A stretch of 64,000 nucleotides of DNA from a virus (lineage: Duplodnaviria > Heunggongvirae > Uroviricota > Caudoviricetes). The notes under the pieces were generated by a model. That model saw nothing but the letters and a program-made list of their open reading frames with translations. It was not told where the DNA came from and did no database searches. Made by a program: the position numbers and the translations under genes. The stretch is taken from IMG/VR virus record IMGVR_UViG_3300028534_000001, positions 132,338 to 196,337 of that record; one strand, 5' to 3'. This document shows positions 12,197-63,167 of this stretch, piece by piece (the stretch's first letter is position 1; every line of letters begins with the position of its first letter).

Positions 12197-12903
12197 AATA
12201 TCCCCTTATTTTTTAATAATATTTCTAATTCTTTAGGGTTGCTACAATAATTATTATAACCTTTTCTATTATTTTTATCAACTAAAAAGGTCTCACAATT
12301 TGCAAATTTTGCTATTCCATCAATATCTATAACTATAGAACTACTACCTATTACAATTAACTTACTATTAGGGTTTTGTAAATATTCAAAAGCTCTTCTC
12401 ATATATGTATATAACCAAGCATATCCATTAAAAAATACAATATCAGGTTTTACTCCTTTTATACTATTACAATTTGGACATCTATCTTTTTCACAATCCC
12501 AATTTTTATATTTTATTTCAAATTTATTACCACAAGCTGTACATTCCATTTTAGTAATTTTACCATGTACATACATTGTAGGTATTTTTAATCTATCAAA
12601 AAAATCAGATATATTAGTTGTGATATTTATTAAAGTATCTTTATATTTATCATTTAATTTTTTTATAATATAATGATATTCATTACATTTAGAAGATTTT
12701 ATTTGATTTCTTAAAATATTATAAAATTCATGCATAACACAAAAATTTTTCTTCCAAGTTTTATCATTACAAACTATATCTTTGTTATATTTTTCCCAAA
12801 TAGAATCTTTTCCTCTAAATGTAGATAAACCAGACAAAATATCTAATCCTGCACCACTAAAAATTATAATTTTTTCACTACCATCATATCTAGGAATAAA
12901 CAT
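12193..12903 (-). CDS. Sir2-family NAD-dependent deacylase / ADP-ribosyltransferase
   Basis: GAGLDILSGLSTFRG is the Sir2 GAGIS..GIP.FR motif. The catalytic HG is present (YVHGKI). A zinc ribbon is formed by CTACG and CPNCNS. VIGSSSIV is also present. Confidence 0.7.
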   Translation of the reverse strand: MFIPRYDGSEKIIIFSGAGLDILSGLSTFRGKDSIWEKYNKDIVCNDKTWKKNFCVMHEFYNILRNQIKSSKCNEYHYIIKKLNDKYKDTLINITTNISDFFDRLKIPTMYVHGKITKMECTACGNKFEIKYKNWDCEKDRCPNCNSIKGVKPDIVFFNGYAWLYTYMRRAFEYLQNPNSKLIVIGSSSIVIDIDGIAKFANCETFLVDKNNRKGYNNYCSNPKELEILLKNKGIL

Positions 12904-14452: not shown

Positions 14453-15550
14453 TTAAATCTCCTTTTTATTTATTATAATTTTAATTTCATCAAATTCATA
14501 CCCAAGAGGCATTTCTAAATTTTTCATCATATTATATAATACATTTTCAGGAATAAATTTTCCTTCAGTTTCAAATCTGTATTTATTTCTAAAAAATAAT
14601 TCTTTAATTGGTGTTAATAAAGTAATAGCAATAGGTGAATGATTTTTTAGATTTGTTAACCATTTTCTTCTACTTTTCCAAGTCATATTAGTCATATCTA
14701 TAATAAAATCTTCATTTGAATTTTTTAATTCAGTAAATTTTTTAGAAACTCTTCTATCAATTTCTTTATGATCATCTTCAGTTAACATATTCCAACCATC
14801 ACTATATGTAGGATAACCTTTGCCTTTGCATTTATTACAAATTGAATGATCTAAATTATCACCTACATATCCTTCAATATAACCTTTGCCATTACAAAAA
14901 TTACAAATAAATTTTTCTTTGATATAATTCATCAAAATATTATCTCTACTTAAAACTTTTAAATTAGGTAAATTTTCCTTAATATAAGTTGATTTTCCAC
15001 TTAAAGGTGTTCCGATCATAATATAACATTTATTTTTTTTAACACCTCTTTTTATGTCTTTAAAATCAACAATGCATTCTTTTGCTTTTCTATTATTTTC
15101 ATTATCGAAAAAAATATTACCAGCTTTATCAAATAATGAAAAATTATATATTTTAAGATATTTATCAATATTTTTAGCAAAATAATGTTTTATTTGTTTT
15201 TCACTTTTTTGCCATAACATCCCGTGATAATTGATTGTATATAAAACATCTAAAATTTTATCTTTACCTAAAATTCTTTCAATATCATCAATATATTCTA
15301 ATGCTTCAAAAGTCGAAATACCTTCGTGACCTCTGTAATAATCTTTTCCATCTTTGTGAGTTTTAGCATTTGGTTTTCCCAAATCATGTAACAAACCAAC
15401 AATTTTATTAAAATCATCATTTGCTTTGCTAAATACAAGACAAGTATGAGTCCAAGTATCACCTTCTAAATGGTATTTTTCACTATGTAAAATAACATTT
15501 CTCAATTTTTCAAAATGATCTTTTTTTATTTTTTTAAATAATGTTTCCAT
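14453..15550 (-). CDS. HD-phosphohydrolase + T4 Pnk-type polynucleotide 5'-kinase fusion with DnaJ-type zinc-finger insert
   Basis: The N-terminal HD domain is marked by H..H and GLLHDLGKP. The C-terminal IMIGTPLSGKSTYI, SRDNI and DMTNMTWKSRRKW align to T4 Pnk IGCPGSGKSTWA, NRDDY and DTNLNPERRLAW. The insert carries CNFCNGKG and CNKCKGKG. Confidence 0.6.
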   Translation of the reverse strand: METLFKKIKKDHFEKLRNVILHSEKYHLEGDTWTHTCLVFSKANDDFNKIVGLLHDLGKPNAKTHKDGKDYYRGHEGISTFEALEYIDDIERILGKDKILDVLYTINYHGMLWQKSEKQIKHYFAKNIDKYLKIYNFSLFDKAGNIFFDNENNRKAKECIVDFKDIKRGVKKNKCYIMIGTPLSGKSTYIKENLPNLKVLSRDNILMNYIKEKFICNFCNGKGYIEGYVGDNLDHSICNKCKGKGYPTYSDGWNMLTEDDHKEIDRRVSKKFTELKNSNEDFIIDMTNMTWKSRRKWLTNLKNHSPIAITLLTPIKELFFRNKYRFETEGKFIPENVLYNMMKNLEMPLGYEFDEIKIIINKKEI

Positions 15551-15553
15551 ATT

Positions 15554-15715
15554 TTACTCTTTATTTTTAGATTTTTTTGATTTTAAATTTTTTCTAAGAT
15601 TTTCTAATGGATTAGTTTCTGATTTACCAAAAATATAATCCATAACACTTTGTCTATTTTCTTTTGAACTTCTAATCCATTCTGTGATAATTTTTGCTTC
15701 TCCTGTTTGAATCAT
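15554..15715 (-). CDS. small hypothetical protein (53 aa), absent from ORF track
   Basis: An ATG at 15715 with an AAGGAG RBS lies immediately downstream of promoter 15745..15773. The stop TAA is the rc of 15554-15556. Confidence 0.3.
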   Translation of the reverse strand: MIQTGEAKIITEWIRSSKENRQSVMDYIFGKSETNPLENLRKNLKSKKSKNKE

Positions 15716-15744
15716 TTTTTCTCCTTTTTTATTTTCTTAATATA

Positions 15745-15773
15745 ATTATACCAAAATTTTATAAAAAAGTCAA
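15745..15773 (-). promoter_or_regulatory. sigma70-type early promoter
   Basis: The attata element is at 15745-15750 and agtcaa at 15768-15773, with a 17 nt spacer. Confidence 0.7.
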
Positions 15774-15779
15774 GAAAAT

Positions 15780-16265
15780 TTAAGAAATTTTTTCTAATAT
15801 TTTGATAACTTGATTTTTTAAATGTTCTAAATCTTTTGTATTATCTATAATATAATCAAACAATTCATCTGATAAATCTTGTTCTGTTATATGATTATCT
15901 TCATTTTTATTAAATCTTTTTACTTTTATTAGTATAGCATTCTGTTTTTTAAGAAATTCAATTTCATTCATAAATCTAACATCTGTAACTATTATTTTAT
16001 TTTTTAAATTTTGATCTACATAATTTATAAATTGATTCTCATCATATTTTCTCATTAACATACCTATATTTCTGAATATATGTCTCCAATAAGGTATTCT
16101 TTTTAGTGTATCATATGTATGTTCATCTATTTGAAATATTTTAAAAATTTCTTTTTTAATTGGGTCTGCAAAAGCAATTTTATTAAATTCATTATCTATT
16201 TCTTTTATAATTTGATATACTGTATCTTTTCCACTTCCTTTTAAACCATGTAAACCTATAATCAT
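15780..16265 (-). CDS. deoxynucleoside monophosphate kinase (T4 gp1-like)
   Basis: MIIGLHGLKGSGKDT matches T4 gp1 MKLIFLSGVKRSGKDT. DPIKKEI matches GPIKDAL and DNHITE matches DTHITE. Confidence 0.7.
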   Translation of the reverse strand: MIIGLHGLKGSGKDTVYQIIKEIDNEFNKIAFADPIKKEIFKIFQIDEHTYDTLKRIPYWRHIFRNIGMLMRKYDENQFINYVDQNLKNKIIVTDVRFMNEIEFLKKQNAILIKVKRFNKNEDNHITEQDLSDELFDYIIDNTKDLEHLKNQVIKILEKIS

Positions 16266-16303
16266 AAAAATCTCCTCAATTTTTAATTAAAAGAAAAAAT
16301 CTT

Positions 16304-17434
16304 TTAATTATCTAAATTTTTGATAAATTCTCTTGCTTTAGTAAGTTTAGAATTATCTTTTATTATTTTTTCTTTTAATAATTTATCTAAATCATTTTCA
16401 TTCTTTGCTTTCATTATAACTCCAAAATATGGGTATTTATTATATTTCATTGCAAATTCTTTTCTTTCCATATTTAGTTTTTCTTTAAAAAGATTTAAAC
16501 ATTTATTATATGTATGATTATAAAAATGTGAAACTTTGTTTGTTAATTCAGATATAATTTTATGTTTTTCACCTTTTAAATTTGATAAAATATCATCAAT
16601 TGTTTCATTTATAATATGTTCTATAAGTTTATTTTCAACTAATTCATTAGGTGATAATAATTTATGTAATGTAAAATACCACATTGTTTTAAATTTTCTA
16701 AAAGATGTTTTGAGTGGGTGATTATAATTTCTTACTACCCATCCTTCAATTCCTTCTTTTGTTTCTAGTAATTTTCTTAATTCTGATAATGTATAATTAT
16801 ATTTTTTTGCTAATTTTAAATTAAATTCTTTTGAAAAATGTTTTAAATCTTCATAATGTAAATATTCACCTGTAAATTTATTTCTTATTTGAATTAGTCT
16901 AAGTTCAAATTCTTCTTCATAATTAACAACAATTAAATTTTTCCACCCAACTAATTCAAAAAATGGAATAAATCCAATAAGTTTACAAGCTTTAATAAAA
17001 TTTAAATAATTTTCATTATTTTTAATAAATTTATTTGCTAAATCAGCTTGTTCTGAATAAAAAGAACCTTTAGTTCTAAGTAAAAAATTACCTTTTGAAG
17101 AAAATGTAGGAACAATTAAACTTCCATCTAATTTTTCCATAATTTCTAATTTATCATTATCATTCCAAGGTTTTTCTAATTCTTTATCAATAGTTAAAGG
17201 ATTTTCATTATCATTAAAAAATTTATGAAGACCTAACCATCTTTCTCCTGTATCCAAATTAAAACATAATCCTCTCATTTCTAATCTTTTAAAATCTTCA
17301 CTAAAATCGGTAAAACTTGCTAATCTATAATTAAAAATTCTAAATTTTTCTCCATCAAATTCCTCATCTTTATAATAAAAAGATTCATTATTTTCAACTA
17401 CTTTCATTGCTTCTTCTAAAGTTATTAAATTCAT
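16304..17434 (-). CDS. rnlA: RNA ligase 1 (T4 RnlA-like)
   Basis: At 376 aa it is close to T4 RnlA (374 aa). N-terminal FYYKDEEFDGEKFRIFNYRLASFTDF matches FFYSDDVS.GRTYRIFSYNYASYSDW. Motif I is EKLDGSL. Confidence 0.75.
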   Translation of the reverse strand: MNLITLEEAMKVVENNESFYYKDEEFDGEKFRIFNYRLASFTDFSEDFKRLEMRGLCFNLDTGERWLGLHKFFNDNENPLTIDKELEKPWNDNDKLEIMEKLDGSLIVPTFSSKGNFLLRTKGSFYSEQADLANKFIKNNENYLNFIKACKLIGFIPFFELVGWKNLIVVNYEEEFELRLIQIRNKFTGEYLHYEDLKHFSKEFNLKLAKKYNYTLSELRKLLETKEGIEGWVVRNYNHPLKTSFRKFKTMWYFTLHKLLSPNELVENKLIEHIINETIDDILSNLKGEKHKIISELTNKVSHFYNHTYNKCLNLFKEKLNMERKEFAMKYNKYPYFGVIMKAKNENDLDKLLKEKIIKDNSKLTKAREFIKNLDN

Positions 17435-17470
17435 TTTTATTCCTTATAATTATCATGGATATTTTATATA

Positions 17471-17499
17471 ATTATACTAAATTTTCAAATAAAAGTCAA
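17471..17499 (-). promoter_or_regulatory. sigma70-type early promoter
   Basis: The attata element is at 17471-17476 and agtcaa at 17494-17499, with a 17 nt spacer. Confidence 0.7.
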
Positions 17500-17507
17500 G
17501 AGAAATA

Positions 17508-18524
17508 TTAAATTTCTCTTTTTAAAATATCCCTTACTATTTCTTGAGCTGAAGGTCTTGCTAAATTTTGAATAATTTTTTTCTCGCCTTTATCTAATTC
17601 ATTAAATTTAGGATTATCTTTAATAAAATCTTCTAAAGCATCTTTGAAAAATAATCCTACAATTTTACCAAATTGTTTCCAATCTTTTTCAACTTCACCT
17701 TTTGAAAATAAATTATGAAGTCTATTAACTTCAAAGTATTTTGTAATTTCTTCTGCCCATTTTCTTTGTTCATCTGTAATTACAATTTGTTTTTTATTTT
17801 TAATTTTTTTAATTTTACCTTTTTCTTTAAATTTATCATTTTTATTTTTAAGAATAACTCTATCACCATTAGGCAATGTTTTATTAACTACTGGTTTAAT
17901 TACAACACCTTCACAAATATTTCCTTCTATAGGATTTAATCCATACAATTCAGGGATTTTTGTAGGAAATTCATTTGAAAATTGTAAACATTCTTCAAAT
18001 GTTCCTCTAAATAATTCTGGAACTACTTTAAATTCACAATTAAAAGCTAAATTTTTAACTTTATCCCATTCTAAAAATTCAGCATTTTCATCCTCATCAA
18101 CAGTCATAATATCAAAAACCATAAAATCAGTAAATGGAATATAATGAACTTCTTTTTGAATTTTTGTAAACCCTGGTTTAGTTTCACCATTAAAAATACC
18201 ACCAAAATGTTCTCCAAAAATTTGAACTTGTTTAATTTTTGGATTTTGTGAAATTAAAAAAGATGCAACTTTTTTAGCTGATTCTCTGTAATTTTCAAGC
18301 ATAATATCTGCATCATAAAATTTTTCTAATTCATTATCATTTAAAACAGATGTTCTTTTAGCAACTTTAACATTTTCTCCATCTGAAATGAAGCTAAAAT
18401 TTGTCCCGTGAATTTTTTCAGTAACTACCCATTCACAACAATCTATAATTCCACTTGTGATAATTCTTTTAATTTCTTTTTCTCTGTAAGAATTTTCAAT
18501 TGATGAATATTTTTTAAATTTCAT
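17508..18524 (-). CDS. rnlB: RNA ligase 2 (T4 Rnl2-like)
   Basis: MKFKKYSSIENSYREKEI...CEWVVTEKIHGTNFS is nearly identical to the T4 Rnl2 N-terminus and motif I EKIHGTN. At 338 aa it is close to T4 Rnl2 (334 aa). Confidence 0.8.
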   Translation of the reverse strand: MKFKKYSSIENSYREKEIKRIITSGIIDCCEWVVTEKIHGTNFSFISDGENVKVAKRTSVLNDNELEKFYDADIMLENYRESAKKVASFLISQNPKIKQVQIFGEHFGGIFNGETKPGFTKIQKEVHYIPFTDFMVFDIMTVDEDENAEFLEWDKVKNLAFNCEFKVVPELFRGTFEECLQFSNEFPTKIPELYGLNPIEGNICEGVVIKPVVNKTLPNGDRVILKNKNDKFKEKGKIKKIKNKKQIVITDEQRKWAEEITKYFEVNRLHNLFSKGEVEKDWKQFGKIVGLFFKDALEDFIKDNPKFNELDKGEKKIIQNLARPSAQEIVRDILKREI

Positions 18525-25192: not shown

Positions 25193-25221
25193 ATTATAAC
25201 AAAAAAGAAAGGAAAAGTCAA
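25193..25221 (-). promoter_or_regulatory. sigma70-type early promoter
   Basis: The attata element is at 25193-25198 and agtcaa at 25216-25221, with a 17 nt spacer. Confidence 0.7.
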
Positions 25222-26225
25222 GAACAAAATTCTTTTTTAAGCAATTTCATAAACATTTTTTCTAATTCATTCCAATTTGCTTTTTTAGGTAAATTTTCTT
25301 TTGCTACATCTTGAAGTTTTTCAAAATTTGCGAACTCAATTTCCATTTTTTCTTCTAATTCTTCAAGTGTAAATTCTAAATTTCTAATTTTTTTAAGTTC
25401 TTCAGCATTTTCTAATGGGAATTTTAACTGTTTTTTAACAATTAAATCTCTACCTTCTTCTAATAATCTAAATAAATGAAGAAAAAATTTAGCATCGTAT
25501 CCAAATTCTTTCCATTGTTCTGCTCTATGACTTGCACTAGTAATCTTTTCTTTCATCATTTTGTTTGCTTTTTTAATAAATAAATTTCTTGGAAATGTTA
25601 AATTACTTACAACAATTCCATCTTTTTTGAATAAATGTTTAAAAGGTGCAAATTCATTATAATGTTGAATTTCTCCAACTGTCATAATTCCATCGTGATT
25701 TTCAATAAATTTTTCAATTGTTTTTTGTAATGAAATTAAGTCTTTATAATTTACTGCTTTGTTTTTACCTTTTTTCATTTGACTTTTAGCATAACCCATA
25801 AATGAATGAAATACTCTTTGATTGATAAATAATTCACTATTATTTTGAAATTCTTCAAATTCTGGTGTATTGAATACAACTGCTTCAGGATTTGTATTGG
25901 CAAAAAGTAATTCTACAATGTTCGGATTTACATCTCCAGCTAATTTTAAAAATTTTTTTAATTCATAAACTTTACAATCTAATGCATCTTTTGTATTTTT
26001 ACCACTTTCATCTTTTACAACTTCTGATAAATCAACTTCTTCAACATTTTTAAAACCTAAGTGAAATTCAGGATTAGCTAAGAATACACCTAAAAAATCT
26101 ATGTCTGATTCAGGTGTATTTGTTCCATATAATTGACTACCACTTTTTGTCAAAAATAATAATCTCCCAAAAGGTTTAATTCTTTCTTTTACCATTTCTA
26201 AAATTTCTTGATTTGTTTTTAACAT
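25218..26225 (-). CDS. pol-beta superfamily nucleotidyltransferase
   Basis: LTKSGSQLYGTNTPESDIDFLGVF is the GS...D.D nucleotidyltransferase motif. 335 aa. Confidence 0.5.
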   Translation of the reverse strand: MLKTNQEILEMVKERIKPFGRLLFLTKSGSQLYGTNTPESDIDFLGVFLANPEFHLGFKNVEEVDLSEVVKDESGKNTKDALDCKVYELKKFLKLAGDVNPNIVELLFANTNPEAVVFNTPEFEEFQNNSELFINQRVFHSFMGYAKSQMKKGKNKAVNYKDLISLQKTIEKFIENHDGIMTVGEIQHYNEFAPFKHLFKKDGIVVSNLTFPRNLFIKKANKMMKEKITSASHRAEQWKEFGYDAKFFLHLFRLLEEGRDLIVKKQLKFPLENAEELKKIRNLEFTLEELEEKMEIEFANFEKLQDVAKENLPKKANWNELEKMFMKLLKKEFCS

Positions 26226-27079: not shown

Positions 27080-27108
27080 ATTATATTAAAAATAAAAGGA
27101 AAAGTCAA
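27080..27108 (-). promoter_or_regulatory. sigma70-type early promoter
   Basis: The attata element is at 27080-27085 and agtcaa at 27103-27108, with a 17 nt spacer. Confidence 0.7.
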
Positions 27109-27416
27109 GAAATATCTTTAAATTTATCCCAATTTTTTAACTTTTCAATTAAAAATAAAATTTCATCGACATTTCTAATTTCAGGTAATATTTTATATAA
27201 TATTTTAATTACATCATATTTAGAAATACCAAATATATCTTCAATTATTTTATTTTTTAACAAAGATTCAATTTCACCTTTTGCTAAATTTTCATAATCA
27301 ATAGAAGAAATATTAAAATTAGGTGGTAGATTTACTTCAACATAATCTGTTTCTAATTTGCATTTAATAGATTTATAACCCATAATACTAGTGTCTTTTG
27401 TAACTAAATTTAACAT
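27105..27416 (-). CDS. hypothetical protein
   Basis: 103 aa ORF. Confidence 0.4.
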   Translation of the reverse strand: MLNLVTKDTSIMGYKSIKCKLETDYVEVNLPPNFNISSIDYENLAKGEIESLLKNKIIEDIFGISKYDVIKILYKILPEIRNVDEILFLIEKLKNWDKFKDIS

Positions 27417-27535
27417 ATTTTCTCCTTATTTTTTTTTAATTTATAATAAATTAAGGAATTTAATCCCTATTTATAATAAAAGAATTATTTTTATAAGTAA
27501 TATAATTCTTATTATTAAATCTATTTTTTATAATA

Positions 27536-27757
27536 TTATTCTAAATTTGTAATTACGACTCCAAAATTACCTTTATCTGTGGTAACAACTTCACCTTCTC
27601 CAATTTTTACATTGTTAGCAAAAATCTCTACTTTTTCATTAACCTCTTTATCAAATTTAATTAAATCTTCAACTTTCAATGATTCAATTTCACTAAGTTT
27701 CATTTTAGTATCACATAATTTAACAAAAACATCAACTTTTACATCTTTTAAATTCAT
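27536..27757 (-). CDS. fliN: FliN/SpoA-domain flagellar motor switch-like protein
   Basis: The 73 aa protein DVKVDVFVKL..T.MKLSEIESLKVEDLIKFDK...VEIFANNVKIGEGEVVTTD..FGVVITNL fits the FliN C-terminal SpoA pattern. It overlaps the fliM-like gene by 4 nt. Confidence 0.55.
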   Translation of the reverse strand: MNLKDVKVDVFVKLCDTKMKLSEIESLKVEDLIKFDKEVNEKVEIFANNVKIGEGEVVTTDKGNFGVVITNLE

Positions 27758-28572
27758 TGTATCTCCTTTATATTATCATTTATTTTAATAGCAAAATCAT
27801 TTAATAATAAAGTATCTCCAACTTTAAAATTATCAATTTCTTTTACATTATATTTTTTAGTTTTACCTATTTCGATATCTAAATTAAAATCAAAATTTTT
27901 TTCTTTTTTATTGTTTTCTTTGAAAAAATCTTTAAATTCTTCATAAGGTAAACAAATATTTACCATACCTGAACTACTACCTACTATTATTTCAAATACA
28001 GCCATTATTGACGTTGAATGTTTTTTAGGTCTATAATAAGGTTGACTAAAATGAAAATCTATTATTTCTATATCATCACCAATTCTTTCAAAATCCTCTG
28101 AATATATAAAGGTATTTACTAATTTTCTCATTATTTCATTAGAAACTATTTTTTCAACATTATTGAATTGAATTTCACAAGATTCCATAAATGATTGTAT
28201 TAAAGATGGATTTATTTCAACAAAAAATGTTCTACCATCAAGTTTTAACTCATAAAAGAATGTTGGATGTGGTAAACACATAAGAAATTCATCAAATGTC
28301 AAAACATCTACACTATGCAATTGCATTTCAACTTCTTTTTTAACTAGACTTCTCAATTCAGGTAAAACATTATAAACAAATCTATCTAAAAGCCTTCTTA
28401 TATTTCTTAAATTTTGTTTAGAAACAATATTAGGCCTTTTAAAATCATAATATGTATATTTGTTTTGTTGATTTGAAACTTGTTCATCTTTAAATCTATT
28501 AGGTTGTATATCATCTTCTTCAACCATTTCTAAAAAAGCTTCAATTTCTTCTTGTGACATAATATCAGCCAT
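27754..28572 (-). CDS. fliM: FliM-like flagellar motor switch protein (lacks C-terminal FliN-like domain)
   Basis: MADIMSQEEIEAFL matches the FliM/FliY N-terminal LSQ-E/D-EIDALL. YDFKRPN..S...LRNIRRLLDRF matches FliM YDPNTQRRV..ERLQALEIINERF. GMVNICLPY matches GEFNICLPF and FKVGDTLLL matches LNPGDVLPI. Confidence 0.6.
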   Translation of the reverse strand: MADIMSQEEIEAFLEMVEEDDIQPNRFKDEQVSNQQNKYTYYDFKRPNIVSKQNLRNIRRLLDRFVYNVLPELRSLVKKEVEMQLHSVDVLTFDEFLMCLPHPTFFYELKLDGRTFFVEINPSLIQSFMESCEIQFNNVEKIVSNEIMRKLVNTFIYSEDFERIGDDIEIIDFHFSQPYYRPKKHSTSIMAVFEIIVGSSSGMVNICLPYEEFKDFFKENNKKEKNFDFNLDIEIGKTKKYNVKEIDNFKVGDTLLLNDFAIKINDNIKEIQ

Positions 28573-28594
28573 TCTTTCTCCTTTTTGTAAAATT

Positions 28595-29068
28595 TTAAGC
28601 TAATTCTTTAGCTACTTTTAACATTTCATTCCAAATAGGAATTGTATTGTTATCAAAAATAACATTTAATACAACATTACCAGCCATTCCACATTGAAAA
28701 TCAAATTGTTTTCTAGCTTCTTGAAATCCAACATTTACAGCTGATTCATAAGCTAATTGAATTTCATTATTATTAAAATCTGCTTCATTATTTGAATCAA
28801 TTAAATCAATTAAAGGTTCTAATATACAATAATTTTTTAAATCAAATAAAAAGTCTTGTTTACTTTTTGTATTATTTGGACAAAATAAATCATAAGGAGA
28901 TTTTTTTCCACCTGAAATAATTTTTTTAAGTAAACTTTCTGATGTAATTTCACCTTTGATCGAATACCAAAATTGTTGTTCATTCCCAAAAGCATCTTTA
29001 AACTTATTTGACTCAATAATTTTTGTATATTTTTTAACTTTTAATTCTTCAATTATTTCTTTTAACAT
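28595..29068 (-). CDS. MLKEIL-family hypothetical protein
   Basis: The preferred start is the ATG at 29068 (MLKEIIEEL) with an AAAGGTG RBS. The track start is a GTG 3 codons upstream. Confidence 0.4.
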   Translation of the reverse strand: MLKEIIEELKVKKYTKIIESNKFKDAFGNEQQFWYSIKGEITSESLLKKIISGGKKSPYDLFCPNNTKSKQDFLFDLKNYCILEPLIDLIDSNNEADFNNNEIQLAYESAVNVGFQEARKQFDFQCGMAGNVVLNVIFDNNTIPIWNEMLKVAKELA

Positions 29069-29087
29069 TACAAACACCTTTTTATTT

Positions 29088-29507
29088 TTATTTAATATGT
29101 TTTGCCCATTTTATTTTTGGTTTTAATAATTTTAATATTTCATTATATATTTTAGATTGGTTTTTTGAAATTTCATTCAAATTATCTATATTTAACCATT
29201 TAGCTTCATAAATTTCTCTTTTTTGAAATTTAAAATTATATTCATTATTTGTAAAATTATATAAAAATATACCTATGTTTTTTGAAGGATTAGTTTGAAA
29301 AAAATAATTTTCTAATTCATTTTCATTTAATTTAATACCAGTTTCTTCTTGAAATTCTCTTAAAGCACATTCTTTAAAAGTTTCCCCATTTTCAATTTTA
29401 CCTTTAAAAAAATTCCATTTACTATATTTGTTACATTTATTCATTAAAATTTCTATTTTACCATTTTTTATTCTATAAGGACAAATACCATAAGAATGTG
29501 CTTTCAT
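29088..29507 (-). CDS. Nudix hydrolase
   Basis: The Nudix box FFKGKIENGETFKECALREFQEETGI matches MutT FPGGKIEMGETPEQAVVRELQEEVGI. Confidence 0.7.
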   Translation of the reverse strand: MKAHSYGICPYRIKNGKIEILMNKCNKYSKWNFFKGKIENGETFKECALREFQEETGIKLNENELENYFFQTNPSKNIGIFLYNFTNNEYNFKFQKREIYEAKWLNIDNLNEISKNQSKIYNEILKLLKPKIKWAKHIK

Positions 29508-29509
29508 TT

Positions 29510-30001
29510 TTACTCCTTTAATGGGTTTTTACAATAAATATTTGTAGAAACAAAATCATATTTCAAAAATAATTTTTTATATGGATGTATTTCTTTTATA
29601 TAATAATAATTTTTACAAATAGGCAAATTAACTTTTTTTCTTATTTTTAATATATTATTATCTTGATAAATAAATATAAAATGATCATTTTCTATTGACG
29701 GGTATATTTTTTGTACATTTTCAATTATACTTTTTTCAAAATGAATCATTTTAATACTAATATAAATGTTTGTTAAAAACATTAAAAATAAAATTATTGA
29801 AAATATTTCCATACTAATAAATGAAACTACAATAATAAAAAAACCTAAAACAATCATTTCTAAATTTCCAAAAAATATAAATAACATTCCTATTATATAT
29901 AAATTATAAGAATATTTATCTTTTTTATAAAAATTTTTAAAATTATTAAAATACATTTTTAATTTATTCATTTGAATTTCCATATTTTTTCTCAATTTCA
30001 A
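29510..30001 (-). CDS. membrane protein
   Basis: 163 aa with two or three transmembrane helices and a C-terminal soluble domain. Confidence 0.4.
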   Translation of the reverse strand: MKLRKNMEIQMNKLKMYFNNFKNFYKKDKYSYNLYIIGMLFIFFGNLEMIVLGFFIIVVSFISMEIFSIILFLMFLTNIYISIKMIHFEKSIIENVQKIYPSIENDHFIFIYQDNNILKIRKKVNLPICKNYYYIKEIHPYKKLFLKYDFVSTNIYCKNPLKE

Positions 30002-30554
30002 TAATATTCAAAATTCTATCAATTTGTTCAAATAAATCTTCTTTATTTTCATTATATATAACAAATTTAGAATTTTTAATTTTTGAATAATCATCTAATT
30101 GTTTTTTAACAATATTTTCTGCTTCTAAATATGTAACTTTATCCCTAGTAACAATTCTTTCAATTCTAGTAATATCATCTGCATAAACACAAATTACATT
30201 ATCTTTAAACATTTCATATAATTTACCTTTTTTCTCAAAATATAAAGGATGTTCTATAAAATAAAGTTCTCCACTTTCTTCTAATTTTTTAACTACTCTT
30301 AAAATTCTATTTATAATAGTGGAGTGTAAAATTTTTTCTAAAATTTTTAATTTTTTATCATCTTCAAAAACAATTTTTCTTATTTCTTTTCTATTAGATG
30401 TTCCAAAAATTTGTTTTATTTCATTTTCTTTTTCTTCAAATACTTCTTTAGAAATATTATCCATATAAATTACTTTATAACCTTTTGTATTCAAAATATC
30501 AGCTACTGTAGATTTTCCACTACCTATACTTCCTGTGATAATATATCCATTCAT
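29964..30554 (-). CDS. dephospho-CoA kinase-like P-loop kinase
   Basis: YIITGSIGSGKSTVADIL..GYKVIYMD matches CoaE ALTGGIGSGKSTVA..G..VIDAD. C-terminal ITRIERIVTRDKVT.EAENIVKKQ matches the CoaE QL.R...RD..T.E....I..Q motif. Confidence 0.55.
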   Translation of the reverse strand: MNGYIITGSIGSGKSTVADILNTKGYKVIYMDNISKEVFEEKENEIKQIFGTSNRKEIRKIVFEDDKKLKILEKILHSTIINRILRVVKKLEESGELYFIEHPLYFEKKGKLYEMFKDNVICVYADDITRIERIVTRDKVTYLEAENIVKKQLDDYSKIKNSKFVIYNENKEDLFEQIDRILNIIEIEKKYGNSNE

Positions 30555-30565
30555 AATTTTATTCC

Positions 30566-30751
30566 TTATTTTAAAATTACAATAATTGCTCCAATAATAC
30601 CTAATAATTGCTGTAATGATAAAGGTCCAATTACAATAGGTCCTGTAAAAAATATTATAATAAATCCTATAAAATATCCTACACTAAACCCAATTATGAT
30701 TGAAATAATAAAAATAAAAAATACTAAAATTCCCAATTTTAACAATTGCAT
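30566..30751 (-). CDS. small hydrophobic membrane protein
   Basis: 61 aa, almost entirely hydrophobic. Confidence 0.3.
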   Translation of the reverse strand: MQLLKLGILVFFIFIISIIIGFSVGYFIGFIIIFFTGPIVIGPLSLQQLLGIIGAIIVILK

Positions 30752-30762
30752 AAAATCTCCTT

Positions 30763-31191
30763 TTAAAATTTAATTCTATTTATACTATTTTTACATTTAA
30801 TAATATTATATTTACTACCATCTGAATTATAACCACCTATTAAAATCAATGATACACCAGTTGATGAAGAATTTTCAATTTTGATTTTTTTAGGTTCAAG
30901 ATATAATATTTCAATATTTCCATTTTGATGTGCTTTAAAAATTATTTTATTTATCAAACCATTATAACATATTTCTCCTTTAGCAATAATAGTATTACCA
31001 TCTAAATAATTTTCTTGTTTTCTAAAAATAGAAATTTTATTTTTATTAGCAAATTCATTTAATAATTTATTTTCTTGTTTTAAAACTTGAGGGTTTTTAT
31101 TTGATTCATTTATTTTTACTACAATATAAAAAAATGCTAAAAGTGCAAACAAAATAAATAATACTGTAAATTCTTCTTTAAATTTTTTCAT
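30763..31191 (-). CDS. single-pass membrane protein (FliL-like architecture, speculative)
   Basis: An N-terminal transmembrane helix FTVLFILFALLAFFYIVV is followed by a roughly 110 aa extracytoplasmic domain. Confidence 0.4.
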   Translation of the reverse strand: MKKFKEEFTVLFILFALLAFFYIVVKINESNKNPQVLKQENKLLNEFANKNKISIFRKQENYLDGNTIIAKGEICYNGLINKIIFKAHQNGNIEILYLEPKKIKIENSSSTGVSLILIGGYNSDGSKYNIIKCKNSINRIKF

Positions 31192-31490: not shown

Positions 31491-31519
31491 ATTATACTAA
31501 ATTTTTAAAGAAAAGTCAA
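31491..31519 (-). promoter_or_regulatory. sigma70-type early promoter
   Basis: The attata element is at 31491-31496 and agtcaa at 31514-31519, with a 17 nt spacer. Confidence 0.7.
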
Positions 31520-36052: not shown

Positions 36053-37420
36053 TTATTTTCTTTTTCTTTTAAATTCGTGAACATCATTAAACATAATTTG
36101 AACAATTTTATCACTTTGTTCAATTTGAATTATATGTTTTTCATCTTTAGATAATTCTAAAAATGTTTTCCCATCACACCAAATATGAAAAGGTTTTCTT
36201 GATTTTATTTTAATTGTTAAATTTTGAGGTTCTAAAACATAATGGATTTTTCTATTAGTTTTATCTCCTGTTATAACCCAATTATTTGAAGTTAAAGGTA
36301 AAATAACACCACCATTATTTTTATTTATACCAGTACTACCTTGAGCAGTTGATACAATTATACCACTACCTTTGAAATCTTCAATTTGTTCATCTTTATC
36401 ATCAACACTAAAATCAATCCAAGACGACATATCACCACCTATACATATTTCATTAAAAGCTAAATGCCAATTATTTTCATATTTTACTTTTAATAAATGT
36501 AGTGAAATAATTTCAGGATTTGATATATTTTCTTCTTTATTCATAAGAAAATTTAAAGTACCTTTTCCAACACCATAAAAAGGTTTGTTTTTAAAAGAAA
36601 ATTCTCTTATAGCAAGAAGCATTGTTCCATCACCACCATATACTTTAATAAAATTTGTATATTCTACTATTTTATAATATTTATCAAATGTTTTTAATTC
36701 CCAAATAATTTCACCCCAAAATTTCCATTCATTTAATAATTTGAATGTTTTTTCAAAAAGGTATTTTTTACCTAATTCTTTATTTTTTCTAATTTCTCTT
36801 GCGTGAATAACATTTCCATTATTAGTAAATTCTTCAATATTTTTAATGTGATATCCTTCTAATCCAAAAATAGTAGGATAATTACCGTGATATTTTTTAT
36901 TTTTATATTCAAAATCAATCTTATCGACATCTTTTAAATGTGAATATAAAATAATATTTTTTTTAGATGATATGTCTAAAATTTGTTTTTCTATATTTTC
37001 AAACCATTTATCCCAAGATTCATAGTCATTAGCTCCTATTATAATAGCATTTGGGTATATTTTTTCAATAATTTCTTTTCTTTGTTCAAAAGATAAAGGA
37101 TTTTTATCATCAAGTATTTTATTTATACTACCTATTACAATTATAGGTATTAAACCATCTTCAATAATTTTATTAACAATACTAGCATGTCCTTTGTGGA
37201 AAGGTTGAAATCTTCCTAGAAATAATCCATATTTTTGGTTATAATTTTCATCACATATAAAACTTTCAATAAAAAATTGACCTCCCATAGGAGTATCAGA
37301 ACCTACTTTAAATCCACATTTAGAACATTTATAAATAGTTACTCCATTTCCTTTATATTCTTCTTCAATTATTTCTCTATAATTTTTTGAATATATTCCA
37401 CATTTAGGACATTTATACAT
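36053..37420 (-). CDS. bifunctional NMN adenylyltransferase (NadM-type) / NAD kinase fusion with N-terminal zinc ribbon
   Basis: The N-terminus is CPKCG...CSKCG. GLFLGRFQPFHKGHASIV...IIVIGS matches the archaeal NadM motif GRFQPFH.GH...IG.GS. The C-terminal domain carries the NAD kinase motifs GGDGTMLLA, GVGKGTLNFL, NEICIGG and GIIVSTAQGSTGINKNNGGVILP. Confidence 0.7.
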   Translation of the reverse strand: MYKCPKCGIYSKNYREIIEEEYKGNGVTIYKCSKCGFKVGSDTPMGGQFFIESFICDENYNQKYGLFLGRFQPFHKGHASIVNKIIEDGLIPIIVIGSINKILDDKNPLSFEQRKEIIEKIYPNAIIIGANDYESWDKWFENIEKQILDISSKKNIILYSHLKDVDKIDFEYKNKKYHGNYPTIFGLEGYHIKNIEEFTNNGNVIHAREIRKNKELGKKYLFEKTFKLLNEWKFWGEIIWELKTFDKYYKIVEYTNFIKVYGGDGTMLLAIREFSFKNKPFYGVGKGTLNFLMNKEENISNPEIISLHLLKVKYENNWHLAFNEICIGGDMSSWIDFSVDDKDEQIEDFKGSGIIVSTAQGSTGINKNNGGVILPLTSNNWVITGDKTNRKIHYVLEPQNLTIKIKSRKPFHIWCDGKTFLELSKDEKHIIQIEQSDKIVQIMFNDVHEFKRKRK

Positions 37421-43464: not shown

Positions 43465-43493
43465 ATTATACAATAAAAATAAAGAAAAGTCAA
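43465..43493 (-). promoter_or_regulatory. sigma70-type early promoter
   Basis: The attata element is at 43465-43470 and agtcaa at 43488-43493, with a 17 nt spacer. Confidence 0.7.
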
Positions 43494-43515: not shown

Positions 43516-44901
43516 TTATTTATCTATATTTTCTCTAATTTTATCAAGTGTTATTTCGTTTTTTATTTCTCCATTCTCAAAAACAACTTTTAGCATATCA
43601 ATATCGTTAGGTTGTTTTTCACTTTCTTTAATACAGATAATTTTATCATTTCTTTTAACAGTAATTACTTTACCTTTTTTAGATTGTTTTTTACTATCTG
43701 TTATAGGATTTTTAAACACTTCAACTCCAACTTTTTTACTATCTATATTTCTTTCAATATAAGAACATTTCATAGCAAAACTAAATGTATCTCTATCAAT
43801 TCCAGTTTGCCCTAATTGTGTTCCACTACCAAAAACAAAATTTTCAGCTGCATATCCTCTTTCTGTAAATATTTTAAGGATGTTATCAATTGTTTCAGGA
43901 TTAACACCATCACCCCATAGCACGCTCGTCCAACTACTTGCTTTCTTTCCATTTATTTCAATATCAAAAACATTGTTTTTTTCCATAATTTCAAACATTT
44001 TAGAAATGACTTCAATTGGGTTTCCACTATCTGGACGAATAACAAATGTTTGATTATTTTTAATAATTGATTTTCTAATATTACTTTCAGGTTTTGTAAC
44101 TTCATTTGTAAAATTATAAATATCATAACTATCTGCCACAAATGATAGGATAGCACCTTCTTTATCATTTTCTCTAACCATTCTTTCAATAAATGCTATT
44201 TCTTTTTCAGTTGAACCTTCAGCGTTAGCAGTAGTTGAACTATGTTCCGACGCAAATACGCTAAAAGCGCTTATTTCAGAACTATAAAAATCTCTTGCGA
44301 ATTTAAGAGAATTAAAATTATCTGTCCCATAAAATACACAATTATGAGCGAAACCACTAATTGCTGCTGATTCTACACTTGTCATACTTCTATCCCCAAA
44401 GTTATGATAAGCAAATCTTGCCCATTCTTCACTTCCATATTTTTTAAGCATTTCAAAAACCTGTTTGCTTTTAGTTGTAATAACTGTAGGATACCATATT
44501 TTCATAAGTATTGTCTCCACCCATCCTACTATCCACGGAACATTTTCATCTGTGCTTTCTACTATTACAAGTGGAACACCAGGTTTAACTTTTACACCTT
44601 CTTCAATTGCTTTAATTTTAATAGGAAGTCTTCCATCAAGTTCTTTAGCAATATACATCCAACCATCATAATTAAAATCTATTCCGTGAAGTTTAGCAAA
44701 TTTTGCTGCTTCTTCTACCATTTCTGTAGTAATTCTTTGACTAAGATACCTTTTTAGGTAATATTGAAGACCACTCATAATAATTGTATCAGGACCTTTT
44801 CTTGCCTCGATATAATCATACATATAACACATATCTTTTGGGTATTGTTTATAATGACCATATTTATAAGAATCACTCATCATTACTATATTTTCAACCA
44901 T
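43516..44901 (-). CDS. nadV: nicotinamide phosphoribosyltransferase (NadV/NAMPT)
   Basis: SDSYKYGHYKQYP matches NAMPT TDSYKVTHYKQYP. ADSYDIYN, VIRPDSGNP, FGSG, KCSY and VFKNP..D..K.SKKG all match NAMPT signature blocks. The length is 461 aa. Confidence 0.85.
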   Translation of the reverse strand: MVENIVMMSDSYKYGHYKQYPKDMCYMYDYIEARKGPDTIIMSGLQYYLKRYLSQRITTEMVEEAAKFAKLHGIDFNYDGWMYIAKELDGRLPIKIKAIEEGVKVKPGVPLVIVESTDENVPWIVGWVETILMKIWYPTVITTKSKQVFEMLKKYGSEEWARFAYHNFGDRSMTSVESAAISGFAHNCVFYGTDNFNSLKFARDFYSSEISAFSVFASEHSSTTANAEGSTEKEIAFIERMVRENDKEGAILSFVADSYDIYNFTNEVTKPESNIRKSIIKNNQTFVIRPDSGNPIEVISKMFEIMEKNNVFDIEINGKKASSWTSVLWGDGVNPETIDNILKIFTERGYAAENFVFGSGTQLGQTGIDRDTFSFAMKCSYIERNIDSKKVGVEVFKNPITDSKKQSKKGKVITVKRNDKIICIKESEKQPNDIDMLKVVFENGEIKNEITLDKIRENIDK

Positions 44902-62128: not shown

Positions 62129-62290
62129 ATATTCTTTTCTTTTTTCTATATATAATTATACAATTTTAAAATTGAATTAGAAATAATATATTCTTTTCTT
62201 CTTTCTATATATAATTATACAATTTTAAAATTGAATTAGAAATAATATATTCTTTTCTTCTTTCTATATATAATTATACAATTTTAAATT
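62129..62290 (-). repeat. tandem direct repeat, about 2.7 x 58 bp, each unit with a -10-like TATAAT but no TTGACT
   Basis: The unit atattcttttcttctttctatatataattatacaattttaaaattgaattagaaataat occurs at about 62129, 62187 and 62246. The third copy is truncated and overlaps the stop of 62274..63080. Confidence 0.6.
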
Positions 62291-63080: not shown

Positions 63081-63167
63081 TTTTTCTCCTTAATGTTTAA
63101 AACTAATATTATATATTTTAAAAAATGTTTAATAAATTTTTGTCTTTTATTAAATATATTTATTAAA

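Follow-up and report, generated by a model that had tools for sequence, protein, structure and literature searches.

Phage-borne FliM-like and FliY-type SpoA proteins as a possible decoy of the host flagellar switch

It is already known that phages exploit flagella as receptors and that they can inhibit type IV pili intracellularly. Our literature search found no report of phage-encoded homologues of flagellar rotor or switch proteins. From the letters of a 64,000-nucleotide stretch of phage-like DNA (hereafter the window), however, two adjacent genes had been predicted to encode FliM-like and FliN-like proteins. We wanted to know whether these genes really encode flagellar switch proteins, where they came from, and what such a pair might do in a phage.

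The first gene is located at positions 27754–28572 on the minus strand and encodes a product of 272 amino acids. Profile, sequence and structure matches all bore out its assignment as FliM-like. The Pfam FliM profile PF02154 matched residues 42–211 with an E-value of 1.3e-19 and 71.4 bits (cut-off 27); TIGR01397 gave 85.6 bits, below its equivalog cut-off of 219.6, and NF005194 gave 24 bits against a cut-off of 206. A phmmer search of PDB sequences matched the Helicobacter pylori FliM structures 4FQ0, 4GC8 and 5X0Z at E-values of about 1e-26. The AlphaFold (AF2) model of the protein, which has a pLDDT of 79 overall and above 90 in the middle domain, was compared with the same three structures using Foldseek, resulting in E-values of 1e-15 to 1e-13 and TM-scores of 0.81–0.86. 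Together with the results for the second protein described below, the profile searches and the structure comparison place the pair in the FliM and FliMN_C families, the first protein having the fold of H. pylori FliM.

Overall, the window FliM is 31–38% identical to cellular FliMs. Its layout comprises a predicted N-terminal peptide for docking phosphorylated CheY (CheY-P), a CheC-like FliM middle domain (27928–28422, minus strand; about codons 51–215), and a truncated C-terminal SpoA remnant. The N-terminus and several internal blocks had been said to align to FliM, and they do: the N-terminal segment MADIMSQEEIEAFL aligns with MADILSQEEIDALL, a conserved FliM block, NICLP with NICYP, and GDTLL with GDIIRL. 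The YDFKRP block (28432–28449, minus strand; codons 42–47) is identical to the cellular consensus, and is almost unvarying across 131 FliMs and across the phage set described below. We also screened for the CheC phosphatase motif, [DS]-x3-E-x2-N-x22-P, using a regular expression. Only one protein matched this pattern, and it did so twice: the FliM of a related locus, L095. The window FliM, the remaining six phage FliMs, the phage FliY-like proteins and cellular FliYs of Campylobacterota gave no match.

The second gene, at positions 27536–27757 on the minus strand, encodes a protein of 73 amino acids that had been taken for a separate SpoA/FliN domain. The SpoA assignment holds, as Pfam FliMN_C (PF01052) matched residues 3–72 with an E-value of 4.4e-17 and 62.2 bits (cut-off 23.8). 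TIGR02480 scored 58.8 bits, below its cut-off of 84.05, and the FliY models NF005995 and NF006272 scored 39–41 bits against cut-offs of about 219. Among solved structures in the PDB, H. pylori FliY (5XRW_C) comes closest, and Thermotoga maritima FliN was also matched. The C-terminus of a Nautiliaceae FliY is 37% identical to the 73-residue protein (E = 5.6e-11), and tblastn searches align the protein with the C-terminal end of both Nautiliaceae FliY and phage FliY-like proteins. Judged by these similarities, the "FliN" is best regarded as equivalent to the C-terminal domain of a Campylobacterota FliY. We also made a manual alignment with E. coli FliN. Residues L14, V39, V57, V58, T59 and D61 presumably correspond to L68, A93, V111–V113 and D116 of E. 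coli FliN, so that the hydrophobic patch contacting FliH and CheY-P would be partly conserved. The numbering of the E. coli patch agrees with that in the literature (PMC6700473). With the SpoA domain at the end of Campylobacterota FliY as the nearest counterpart of the 73-residue protein, the pair is a reduced copy of the host fliM–fliY gene pair.

The cellular relatives point to the same source. When 185,579 species genomes were searched, all of the best 80 cellular FliM relatives belonged to the Campylobacterota, the phylum that includes Helicobacter and Campylobacter, with Nautiliaceae on top. In those genomes, fliY is located directly 3' of fliM, a gene order also described in PMC6946799. 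The phage host is probably a member of the Campylobacterota, as judged solely from a protein similarity of 31–38%. The GC content of the window fliM is 23%, versus 35–40% for cellular fliM genes. The best explanation is an ancient capture of the pair from a host, with subsequent drift to the base composition of the phage.

Next, we compared which parts of FliM have been kept and which have been lost. The EIDAL-type CheY-P docking motif of FliM_N is located at 28531–28566 (minus strand; codons 3–14, DIMSQEEIEAFL), and nine of its 12 residues agree with the Campylobacterota consensus DILSQEEIDALL. Identity to the cellular consensus falls from 75% in both the docking motif and the YDFKRP block to 31% across the middle domain and to 16% (with 40% gaps) in the C-terminus, where the AF2 model is of low confidence. 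The first two are thus the best-kept segments, and the window FliM retains a predicted CheY-P docking peptide. In contrast, E130 is followed directly by S131 (near nucleotides 28182/28183), where the GGXG loop has been deleted: the alignments show a gap of 10–11 residues right where cellular FliMs carry DRLLGGxGE. GGXG of FliM and EHPQR of the FliG middle domain (FliG_M) constitute the FliM–FliG interface (review PMC6700473). The SpoA domain of FliM_C is reduced to a degenerate remnant (27757–27900, minus strand; about codons 225–272), which lacks about the final 25–30 residues as well as the C-terminal helix specific to Campylobacterota. Alignment to cellular FliMs stops after about the third SpoA strand, and PF01052 did not match the window FliM even at E ≤ 1.

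This pattern bears on the suggestion in the original prediction that the pair might hijack or jam the host C ring or the CheY interface. The comparative evidence favours that idea, because the docking peptide is best kept, the GGXG loop is deleted and the SpoA domain of FliM is truncated; with the docking site kept and the rotor-attachment loop lost, interference with the host motor is likelier than motor building. We therefore put forward, tentatively and at a little short of an even chance, that the pair is an early-made decoy or dominant-negative switch subcomplex that would uncouple or disable the motor of the host. A sink for CheY-P needs just the peptide of about 16 residues, and the retained middle domain and SpoA partner therefore require an extra reason. 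The truncation of FliM_C counts against a decoy insofar as it puts SpoA pairing or entry into the C ring in doubt.

Could the pair instead keep the motor running? Like psbA of cyanophages, it might be a maintenance gene set that supplies fresh C-ring subunits, so that the infected cell continues to swim and respond chemotactically after shut-off of host expression. FliM and FliN are motor parts known for turnover (PMC6700473), the docking motif and the YDFKRP block are well preserved, and some of the relatives described below retain GGXG together with a near-complete switch set of FliM, FliY, FliN and FliG_M. We nevertheless consider maintenance unlikely, as three features are missing from the window FliM: the loop that binds FliG, the distal strands of SpoA and a host-type C-terminal helix. 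Moreover, subunits meant to replace those of a densely packed ring should remain near the host version rather than at 31–38% identity, and a FliG middle domain by itself cannot transmit torque.

The genetic organization of the locus indicates how the two proteins may be produced. As read from the sequence, fliM ends and fliN begins within a shared ATGA (27754–27757, minus strand), in line with the predicted translational coupling. The Shine–Dalgarno sequence AAGGAGA precedes both genes: the copy of fliM is located at 28577–28583 (minus strand; the upstream region reads ...AAAAAGGAGAAAGA ATG) and that of fliN lies inside the 3' end of fliM. The pair had been noted to lack the consensus early promoter, which is literally true but turned out not to be meaningful. 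The consensus TTGACTTT-N14-16-TATAAT occurs 24 times, in all cases on the minus strand, versus 0.06 occurrences expected, which amounts to about one per four genes. The closest such sigma-70-type promoter upstream of fliM is found at 31491–31519 (minus strand; TTGACT, 17 nt, TATAAT). It is likely the start of a unit of nine genes (27105–31191, minus strand), inferred from the ORF list, Pfam matches, and promoter and terminator scans, in which the pair occupies places 7 and 8. Because the pair sits inside this unit, the lack of a promoter of its own is unremarkable. A scan for intrinsic terminators between the promoter at 31519 and fliN did not reveal any terminator-like site.

The order of products encoded by the unit is 142 aa, 61 aa, a CoaE-like kinase, 163/157 aa, NUDIX, 160/157 aa, FliM, FliN and 103 aa. 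The 142-aa, 61-aa and 163/157-aa products are apparently membrane proteins, as judged by eye from their hydrophobic stretches, and the 160/157-aa and 103-aa products are unknowns. The 119-nt spacer 3' of fliN contains an AT-rich hairpin whose fold is not significant (z = −0.8), so the place of the 103-aa gene in the unit is uncertain. The next downstream consensus promoter (27080–27108, minus strand) overlaps the end of the 103-aa ORF and starts the next transcription unit. The 103-aa and 160-aa genes were considered as members of the module, for instance as an equivalent of FliG_M, and rejected: they had no Pfam, PHROG or PADLOC matches, and no homologues were found in the related loci at E ≤ 1e-5. 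Their sole similarity was one of 16 residues to ORF151 of the related locus L007 (E = 0.008, in a single comparison).

The window belongs to a phage-like contig of about 207–222 kb with a GC content of 20% and nearly all ORFs on the same strand. PHROG and Pfam searches identified phage-type genes encoding a helicase (phrog_2488), RnlA, Rnl2, a PNK-like protein, a dNMP kinase, NAMPT, Thg1 and a CCA-adding enzyme, with Apyc1 just beyond the window end. No cellular housekeeping genes were seen. The label "phage" rests on gene content and architecture, because the approximately 72 kb inspected did not reveal genes for virion structural proteins. Among the genes called from window position 2.1 kb to about 72 kb, there were no FliG, FliF or export-gate domains, and the locus is, as originally stated, not a flagellar operon. 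PHROGs contain a family for neither FliM nor FliN of the window, and 20 kb of the window, queried by megablast, matched none of 50,697 phage records.

These data also bear on whether the pair is a functionless passenger in decay, or a piece of host DNA that was joined by mistake to a phage contig. The truncations and the loss of motifs do resemble decay. In addition, a tblastn search of cultured phages with the window FliM returned only Microcystis phage MaAM05/PhiMa05 (MW495066), which carries the sole FliM match in 50,697 GenBank phage records (24.6% identity), and this lone match is most likely a bacterial fragment; FliN returned four weak Listeria fragments. The fliM gene of MaAM05 is flanked by murJ, fabI, pomA and engB, and a published comment considers the record a bacterial fragment with a MotA-MotB-FliL-FliM-FliY cluster (PMC13623518). 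On the basis of this neighbourhood and the comment, MaAM05 is probably bacterial and was rejected as a comparable phage FliM. For the window, however, both ORFs are intact, with strong Shine–Dalgarno sequences and ATGA coupling, and the base composition fits this phage and no host. An ENA assembly and a Logan assembly are 99.9–100% identical to the window across the region, and a JGI contig of 222,650 bp carries a protein identical to that of the window. The pair is no assembly artefact. Decay or mis-joining is largely refuted because the module recurs, with conserved motifs, in eight phage-like lineages whose FliMs are 28–36% identical to one another, and we regard this explanation as highly improbable.

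The recurrence was established in at least seven other phage-like, low-GC metagenomic loci (L006, L007, L008, L009/L010, L011, L093/L094 and L095), in which fliM is followed by fliY and/or fliN. Other genes of these loci are also related to those of the window, with identities of 64% for NAMPT, 44% for NUDIX, 41% for dCMP deaminase, 38% for Thg1, 35% for Band_7 and 31% for RnlA. A full-length FliY-like protein that aligns end to end with cellular FliY is encoded by L007 and L009/L010, and L007 additionally encodes a FliG_M fragment with EHPQ kept. The CheY-docking motif is retained in seven of the eight phage-borne FliMs, the exception being that of L093. GGXG has been lost in five of the eight, including that of the window, and FliMN_C is undetectable in six. 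Single-interface fragments, FliG_M alone or SpoA alone, also occur among the relatives. Since L008 and L011 retain GGXG and L093 is devoid of the docking motif, the phage family may not share one mechanism. In a neighbour-joining tree with 100 bootstraps, a single clade of phage versions was neither supported nor rejected. Scans of IMG/VR, with the single protein as well as with a 17-sequence alignment, did not reveal a relative of the pair.

The relatives help to judge the alternative, raised in the original prediction, of a non-flagellar SpoA complex. In that case, the CheC/SpoA scaffold would have been repurposed as an assembly or sorting platform, or as a counter-defence factor that binds some phosphorylated receiver domain, not that of CheY. 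The window FliM has indeed lost the canonical FliG interface, and genes for NAMPT, a NadR-like protein, Tad2-like and Acb2/Tad1-like hairpin proteins and Apyc1, all of which we counted as counter-defence or takeover genes, abound in the surroundings of the window pair and of the related loci. However, PADLOC defence profiles did not match FliM, FliN or the two flanking unknowns at E ≤ 0.1, and the retained motif is of the flagellar EIDAL type. This motif, the FliG_M with EHPQ of one relative and the full-length alignment of the FliY-like proteins to cellular FliY tie the module to the flagellar switch. With the docking motif present in seven of the eight FliMs and the FliG_M fragment at hand, a non-flagellar role is disfavoured, and we consider it very unlikely.

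How might a decoy of the switch act? Host RNA polymerase would probably read the pair from the strong early-type promoter into a polycistronic mRNA, and translational coupling would ensure that both products are made together. The products would probably form a FliM:SpoA subcomplex, comparable to FliM–FliY of Campylobacter jejuni, in which the two proteins bind each other directly, stabilise each other and make a platform for FliH (PMC6946799). Such a subcomplex would retain the CheY-P-docking N-terminal peptide and the SpoA surface that, with FliM, makes the FliH platform. With its GGXG loop deleted, it could not be fastened to the rotor protein FliG, and it would also be devoid of the distal strands of the FliM SpoA domain and of the C-terminal helix that host FliM carries. 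Its most likely action would be to soak up CheY-P, and possibly FliH-FliI. As FliM and FliN exchange in running motors (PMC6700473), the subcomplex may also swap into the FliM/FliN(Y) portion of the C ring that turns over naturally. The outcome would be that the motor of the infected cell is severed from chemotaxis signalling, or is weakened or stopped. What the phage would gain is pure inference: candidates are the exclusion of superinfecting phages that depend on the flagellum, the saving of energy and export capacity, and the fixing of swimming behaviour.

The FliH platform admits a further explanation, in which the target is a C-ring job other than motility. A mimic of FliM–FliY might titrate FliH-FliI and thereby shut flagellar type III export, or perturb the C-ring-dependent polar localisation of FlhG, with consequences in the second case for cell division or the number of flagella. 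FliM plus the SpoA core of FliY is exactly what the window pair represents, FliM–FliY of C. jejuni is the FliH platform (PMC6946799), and the C ring of C. jejuni localises FlhG, thereby controlling division site and flagellar number (PMC6946799, PMC3228812). This explanation extrapolates from a single genus, though, and it leaves unaccounted for that the docking peptide is the best-kept segment; it seems improbable, to about the same degree as maintenance. A broader joint reading, which we find quite improbable, is that a clade of large, very AT-rich phages of Campylobacterota has domesticated FliM, FliY/FliN and sometimes FliG_M as a soluble "pseudo-switch" that would control the cell pole by hijacking, via FliH-FliI and FlhG, the C-ring circuits that in this phylum also gate export, flagellar number and division placement; its effect would thus go beyond a halt of swimming. 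If true, this would be the first virus with mimics of flagellar rotor subunits as a host-takeover device.

The presence of fliM-type genes in at least eight related, strongly diverged phage-like lineages, with as common pattern a docking peptide that is kept and a rotor attachment that is lost, is of interest beyond this locus. If the pair acts as a decoy, such proteins would be dominant-negative tools, natural and tuned by evolution, for probing C-ring assembly and CheY signalling in Campylobacterota, and intracellular sabotage of the flagellum would join the takeover strategies of phages. They would also provide a cautionary yet genuine case of "motility genes" in viral metagenomes that are not host contamination.

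The logic proposed for the decoy is shared with the type IV pili inhibitors Tip, Aqs1, PfsE and the PlzR type, and with FlaGrab of Campylobacter phage NCTC 12673. In each case a phage product disables motility machinery at the cell surface, often to exclude superinfecting phages (for example PMC11436027, PMC8764522, PMC7099621). However, the pilus inhibitors are small unrelated proteins and FlaGrab is a virion protein that binds flagellar glycans; none of them is homologous to the machine's own subunits or hits the flagellar switch from inside the cell. With Campylobacterota FliM (H. pylori 4FQ0, 4GC8 and 5X0Z), the window FliM has in common the EIDAL-type peptide, YDFKRP, the middle-domain fold and a SpoA gene next to it. 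It differs in its identity of only 31–38%, in having no GGXG loop, a truncated SpoA and no C-terminal helix, and in residing in a phage-like genome where other flagellar genes are absent from about 70 kb. Likewise, the 73-residue protein shares with Campylobacterota FliY (H. pylori 5XRW and C. jejuni) a complete SpoA domain and a gene position right after fliM, but is devoid of the approximately 190-residue N-terminal and CheC-like part. The pair also resembles SctQ/SctQ-C of injectisomes (SpaO and YscQ), in which a long protein of the FliM/FliN family and a separately translated short SpoA protein are produced from one locus. SctQ models scored 20–29 bits on the 73-residue protein, far under their cut-offs of 100–230 (TIGR02551, 28.8 versus 100.8 bits; NF006018, 28.2 versus 223 bits). 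SctQ contains neither a FliM middle domain nor an EIDAL motif, and its short SpoA product arises from an internal start, whereas in the window the long protein has both of these elements and the two products are encoded by two overlapping genes.

The two genes lie on the minus strand, as a fliM-like ORF of 272 aa (28572..27754) and a SpoA ("FliN") ORF of 73 aa (27757..27536). The ORFs, as read from the sequence, overlap in ATGA, and both are preceded by AAGGAGA. Residues 42-211 of the window FliM match Pfam FliM (E=1.3e-19, 71 bits; cut-off 27), and its TIGR01397 score is 85.6 bits, far under the full-length cut-off of 219.6. The closest solved structures by sequence are those of H. pylori FliM (4FQ0, 4GC8 and 5X0Z; E ~1e-26). 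An AlphaFold model (131 homologues; mean pLDDT 79, middle domain >90) matched the same three structures in Foldseek, with E-values of 1e-15 to 1e-13 and TM scores of 0.81-0.86; the next matches were Salmonella C-ring FliM and T. maritima FliM, followed by FliY, CheC and CheX. Several independent measures, of sequence and of predicted fold, identify the long protein as homologous to FliM. Residues 3-72 of the 73-aa protein match Pfam FliMN_C (E=4.4e-17), and judged by this alignment the protein is a whole SpoA domain, whose closest solved relative is the C-terminal domain of H. pylori FliY (5XRW_C). The original prediction of a FliM-like and a FliN-like pair was thus confirmed, as all the FliM blocks that it cited align with conserved FliM blocks.

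The GC content is 20% throughout the window, and the minus strand holds ~108 of the 132 ORFs that reach 60 aa. Identical FliM proteins are encoded on a 207,484-bp ENA contig, a 222,650-bp JGI contig and a Logan contig, and the window is 99.9-100% identical to the ENA and Logan assemblies across the region, so that a mis-join is unlikely. The predicted gene content is that of the non-structural region of a large lytic phage. Among the genes are a helicase (phrog_2488, E=5e-112; ~32% identity with Ackermannviridae-type helicases), T4-type RNA ligases 1 and 2, a PNK-like kinase, dNMP kinase, dCMP deaminase, Cpn10, HU, SIR2, NAMPT, an NMNAT-like/NAD-kinase-like protein, NUDIX, a CoaE-like kinase, an RlaP nucleotidyltransferase, a Thg1-like protein and a CCA-adding enzyme. 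No virion structural genes were seen in the ~72 kb inspected (about one third of the contig), and the label "phage" therefore rests on gene content and architecture. The same ~72 kb contain no flagellar or chemotaxis domains besides the pair, and the window has no tRNA genes.

Several other features of this region were observed. NAMPT (43516-44901; phrog_448, E=4e-119) and a cytidylyltransferase-like/NAD-kinase-C fusion protein (36053-37420) look like a phage NAD+ salvage/reconstitution set, judging by their domains; such sets are presumably linked to counter-defence. A SIR2-domain protein is encoded at 12193-12903, and a dense RNA/tRNA-repair toolkit (PNK-like kinase, RNA ligases 1 and 2, RlaP nucleotidyltransferase, CCA-adding enzyme and Thg1-like 3'-5' polymerase) at 14453-18524, 25218-26225, 58959-59780 and 62274-63080, all on the minus strand, as are NAMPT and the fusion protein. 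A 428-aa ORF (53569-54855, minus strand) with no Pfam or PHROG match houses an in-frame 108-nt tandem repeat of ~3.4 copies with 81-88% identity (53807-54200). Around the Thg1-like gene, 62163-63086 is 96.4% identical, with 3 gaps, to the ENA assembly (L096:8885-9808); on one side of this stretch, the identity is 100%. This suggests that the gene may be a local hotspot of strain variation. On the same contig, 6 kb past the window end, there is an Apyc1-type anti-Pycsar gene with a metallo-beta-lactamase fold (L096:1684-2376), near a Ham1p-like ITPase and ferritin.

A scan of the window for TTGACTTT-N14-16-TATAAT gave 24 sites, on the minus strand only, where 0.06 were expected. Examples are found at 31491-31519, 27080-27108 and 43465-43493. 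The promoters have a uniform sigma-70-type form, (T)CTTGACTTTT, ~11 nt, T(A/G)nTATAAT and then TATAAT, and always run along the gene direction; a second TATAAT-like repeat immediately 3' of the -10 element is unusual. The pair had been noted to be without a consensus promoter of its own. This is literally correct, the nearest upstream copy lying at 31519-31491 (minus strand), but it is not a special trait: with roughly one promoter per four genes, lacking one is the rule in the window. The next promoter downstream is located at 27108-27080 (minus strand), and a terminator scan revealed no terminator-like sites between the two, so the pair would constitute genes 7 and 8 of a nine-gene unit: three apparent membrane proteins (called by eye from hydrophobic stretches), CoaE, NUDIX, an unknown protein, FliM, FliN and another unknown protein. 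Folding of the 119-nt spacer 3' of fliN is not above that of shuffled sequence (z=-0.8).

An exhaustive phmmer search of the window FliM against 1.84 billion cluster representatives gave 730 matches, none above 40% identity. Several top matches are short and K/N/I-rich, and lie on phage-like contigs with a GC content of 17-27%. Among these metagenomic loci, L006 encodes FliM and an 86-aa SpoA protein; L011, FliM, a 107-aa unknown protein and an 87-aa SpoA-like protein; and L009/L010, one of which comes from a hydrothermal-vent metagenome, FliM, a 243-aa FliY-like protein and an 82-aa FliN, besides ClpB, Tad2-like, YqeY and Band_7. Locus L007 has FliM, a 240-aa FliY-like protein and a 76-aa FliN, together with Thg1, NUDIX, dCMP deaminase and an Acb2/Tad1-like hairpin; immediately 3' of its fliM-fliY-fliN genes lies a free-standing 113-aa FliG middle domain (5999-6340; Pfam FliG_M, E=3.8e-10), which retains EHPQ and is without the FliG N- or C-terminal domain. 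In L008, which also carries NAMPT, FliM is accompanied by a 213-aa protein (4341-4982) whose domain order is reversed with respect to FliY: SpoA (residues 6-76), then a CheX/CheC-like region with GGEG. L093/L094 (with NrdD, NrdG and MazG) and L095 (with RnlA and Metallophos) encode a FliM fused to a FliN-type SpoA domain plus a 77-aa FliN; a divergently oriented TnpB/Cas12f-like fragment (Cas12f1-like_TNB, L093:41-469) adjoins fliM-fliN of L093 upstream. The loci and the window have non-flagellar genes in common (NAMPT 64% identity, NUDIX 44%, dCMP deaminase 41%, Thg1 38%, Band_7 35%, RnlA 31%), which places the module in a wide group of large, related phages.

No relatives of the switch module were found in IMG/VR, and the 50,697 GenBank phage records gave a single FliM match, "Microcystis phage MaAM05". 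We rejected it as a phage fliM: the stretch (MW495066.1 102597-115292; GC 55%), with murJ, fabI, engB, pomA, ompA-like and fliM genes, reads as bacterial chromosome, and the case that this record is a fragment of bacterial DNA has been made in a published comment (PMC13623518). For the window pair, a decaying passenger or an artefact is very improbable, given that the ORFs are intact and coupled, their composition is phage-like, independent assemblies agree and the module recurs with its motifs conserved.

Among 185,579 species, scanned with one genome each, the best 80 cellular relatives of the window FliM all belong to Campylobacterota (31-38% identity), in the order Nautiliaceae, Helicobacter, Sulfurimonas, Campylobacter, Sulfurospirillum, Arcobacter and Wolinella. 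In these relatives fliY (266-287 aa) lies directly 3' of fliM, an arrangement known in C. jejuni (PMC6946799). The phage FliY-like proteins align over their full length with cellular FliY (E 1e-19 to 1e-30), and the 73-aa protein aligns with the C-terminal SpoA part of these phage proteins and with that of Nautiliaceae FliY (37% identity, E=5.6e-11). In a simple neighbour-joining distance tree, the cellular Campylobacterota FliMs form one clade (87% bootstrap), with the phage FliMs outside it on long branches (70% for the cellular and phage group) and the window FliM weakly grouped with L006 and L093. The GC content of fliM is 23% in the window vs 35-40% in cells. The simplest history for these sequences would be an old capture of fliM-fliY, and in some lineages other pieces, from a Campylobacterota host, followed by divergence and reduction; in the window lineage, FliY would have been reduced to its SpoA domain. 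We infer the host and environment of the window phage; solely from protein similarity, the host is likely a member of Campylobacterota.

Relative to the consensus of 13 cellular Campylobacterota FliMs, the window FliM is 75% identical in the 12-residue CheY-docking motif and in the YDFKRP block, 31% in the middle domain and 16%, with 40% gaps, in the C-terminal region. Across the eight phage FliMs, the window one included, identity in the docking motif is 58-100% in 7/8, and the motif is deleted in L093. The DRLLGGxGE loop, whose GGXG contacts the EHPQR motif of FliG between FliM_M and FliG_M (PMC6700473), is gone from the window FliM through a 10-11 residue deletion; L008 and L011 have it whole, L007 has part of it, and 5/8, window included, have lost it. 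For 6/8 phage FliMs, Pfam detects no FliMN_C, and a FliN-type SpoA domain replaces it in the other two; the Campylobacterota-type C-terminal helix is absent from all eight. The CheC-type phosphatase motif is absent from the window FliM, 6/7 other phage FliMs and the phage FliY-like proteins, the only two pattern matches being in the L095 FliM. With interfaces lost and identity low, a psbA-like maintenance role is unlikely.

FliM_N is the docking site of CheY-P, and in a running motor the FliM and FliN subunits are exchanged (PMC6700473). FliM and FliY of C. jejuni bind directly, stabilise each other and form a joint platform for FliH-FliI, and FlhG depends on the C ring for its localisation (PMC6946799). 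Interference with such non-motility C-ring roles in Campylobacterota (the gating of export, and the control of division and flagellar number through FlhG) has a rather small chance of being the function of the pair. By its motifs, the pair retains the end that docks CheY, a FliY-type SpoA partner and the scaffold domain, but not the clamp to the rotor. Taken over all the loci, the phage versions resemble a collection of fragments with one interface each: a FliM that has no FliG loop, an isolated FliG_M and an isolated SpoA domain. Dominant-negative inhibitors are usually built in this way. Together with the lost rotor clamp, these fragments favour the tentative reading, to which we give slightly less than an even chance, that the pair is a decoy or poison subcomplex. 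Such a subcomplex would sequester CheY-P and perhaps FliH-FliI, and/or its decoy subunits would exchange into the C ring uncoupled from FliG, leaving the motor cut off from chemotaxis or weakened. Here we infer complex formation, partners, phenotype and benefit to the phage. A scaffold repurposed for a phage-specific or counter-defence role has only a slim chance, as there was no PADLOC match.

In full-text literature searches, no account of a FliM, FliN or FliY encoded by a phage turned up; a FliG "auxiliary" gene is mentioned in passing in a river-virome paper (PMC12993620). The pair represents known families in a new setting, and falls short of several of the features that define those families: GGXG, a complete FliM_C, equivalog scores and genomic context. 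A decoy or poison subcomplex would be alike in logic to the phage type IV pili inhibitors and to the flagellum-binding FlaGrab, but, unlike the pair, neither those inhibitors nor FlaGrab are homologues of subunits of the target machine.
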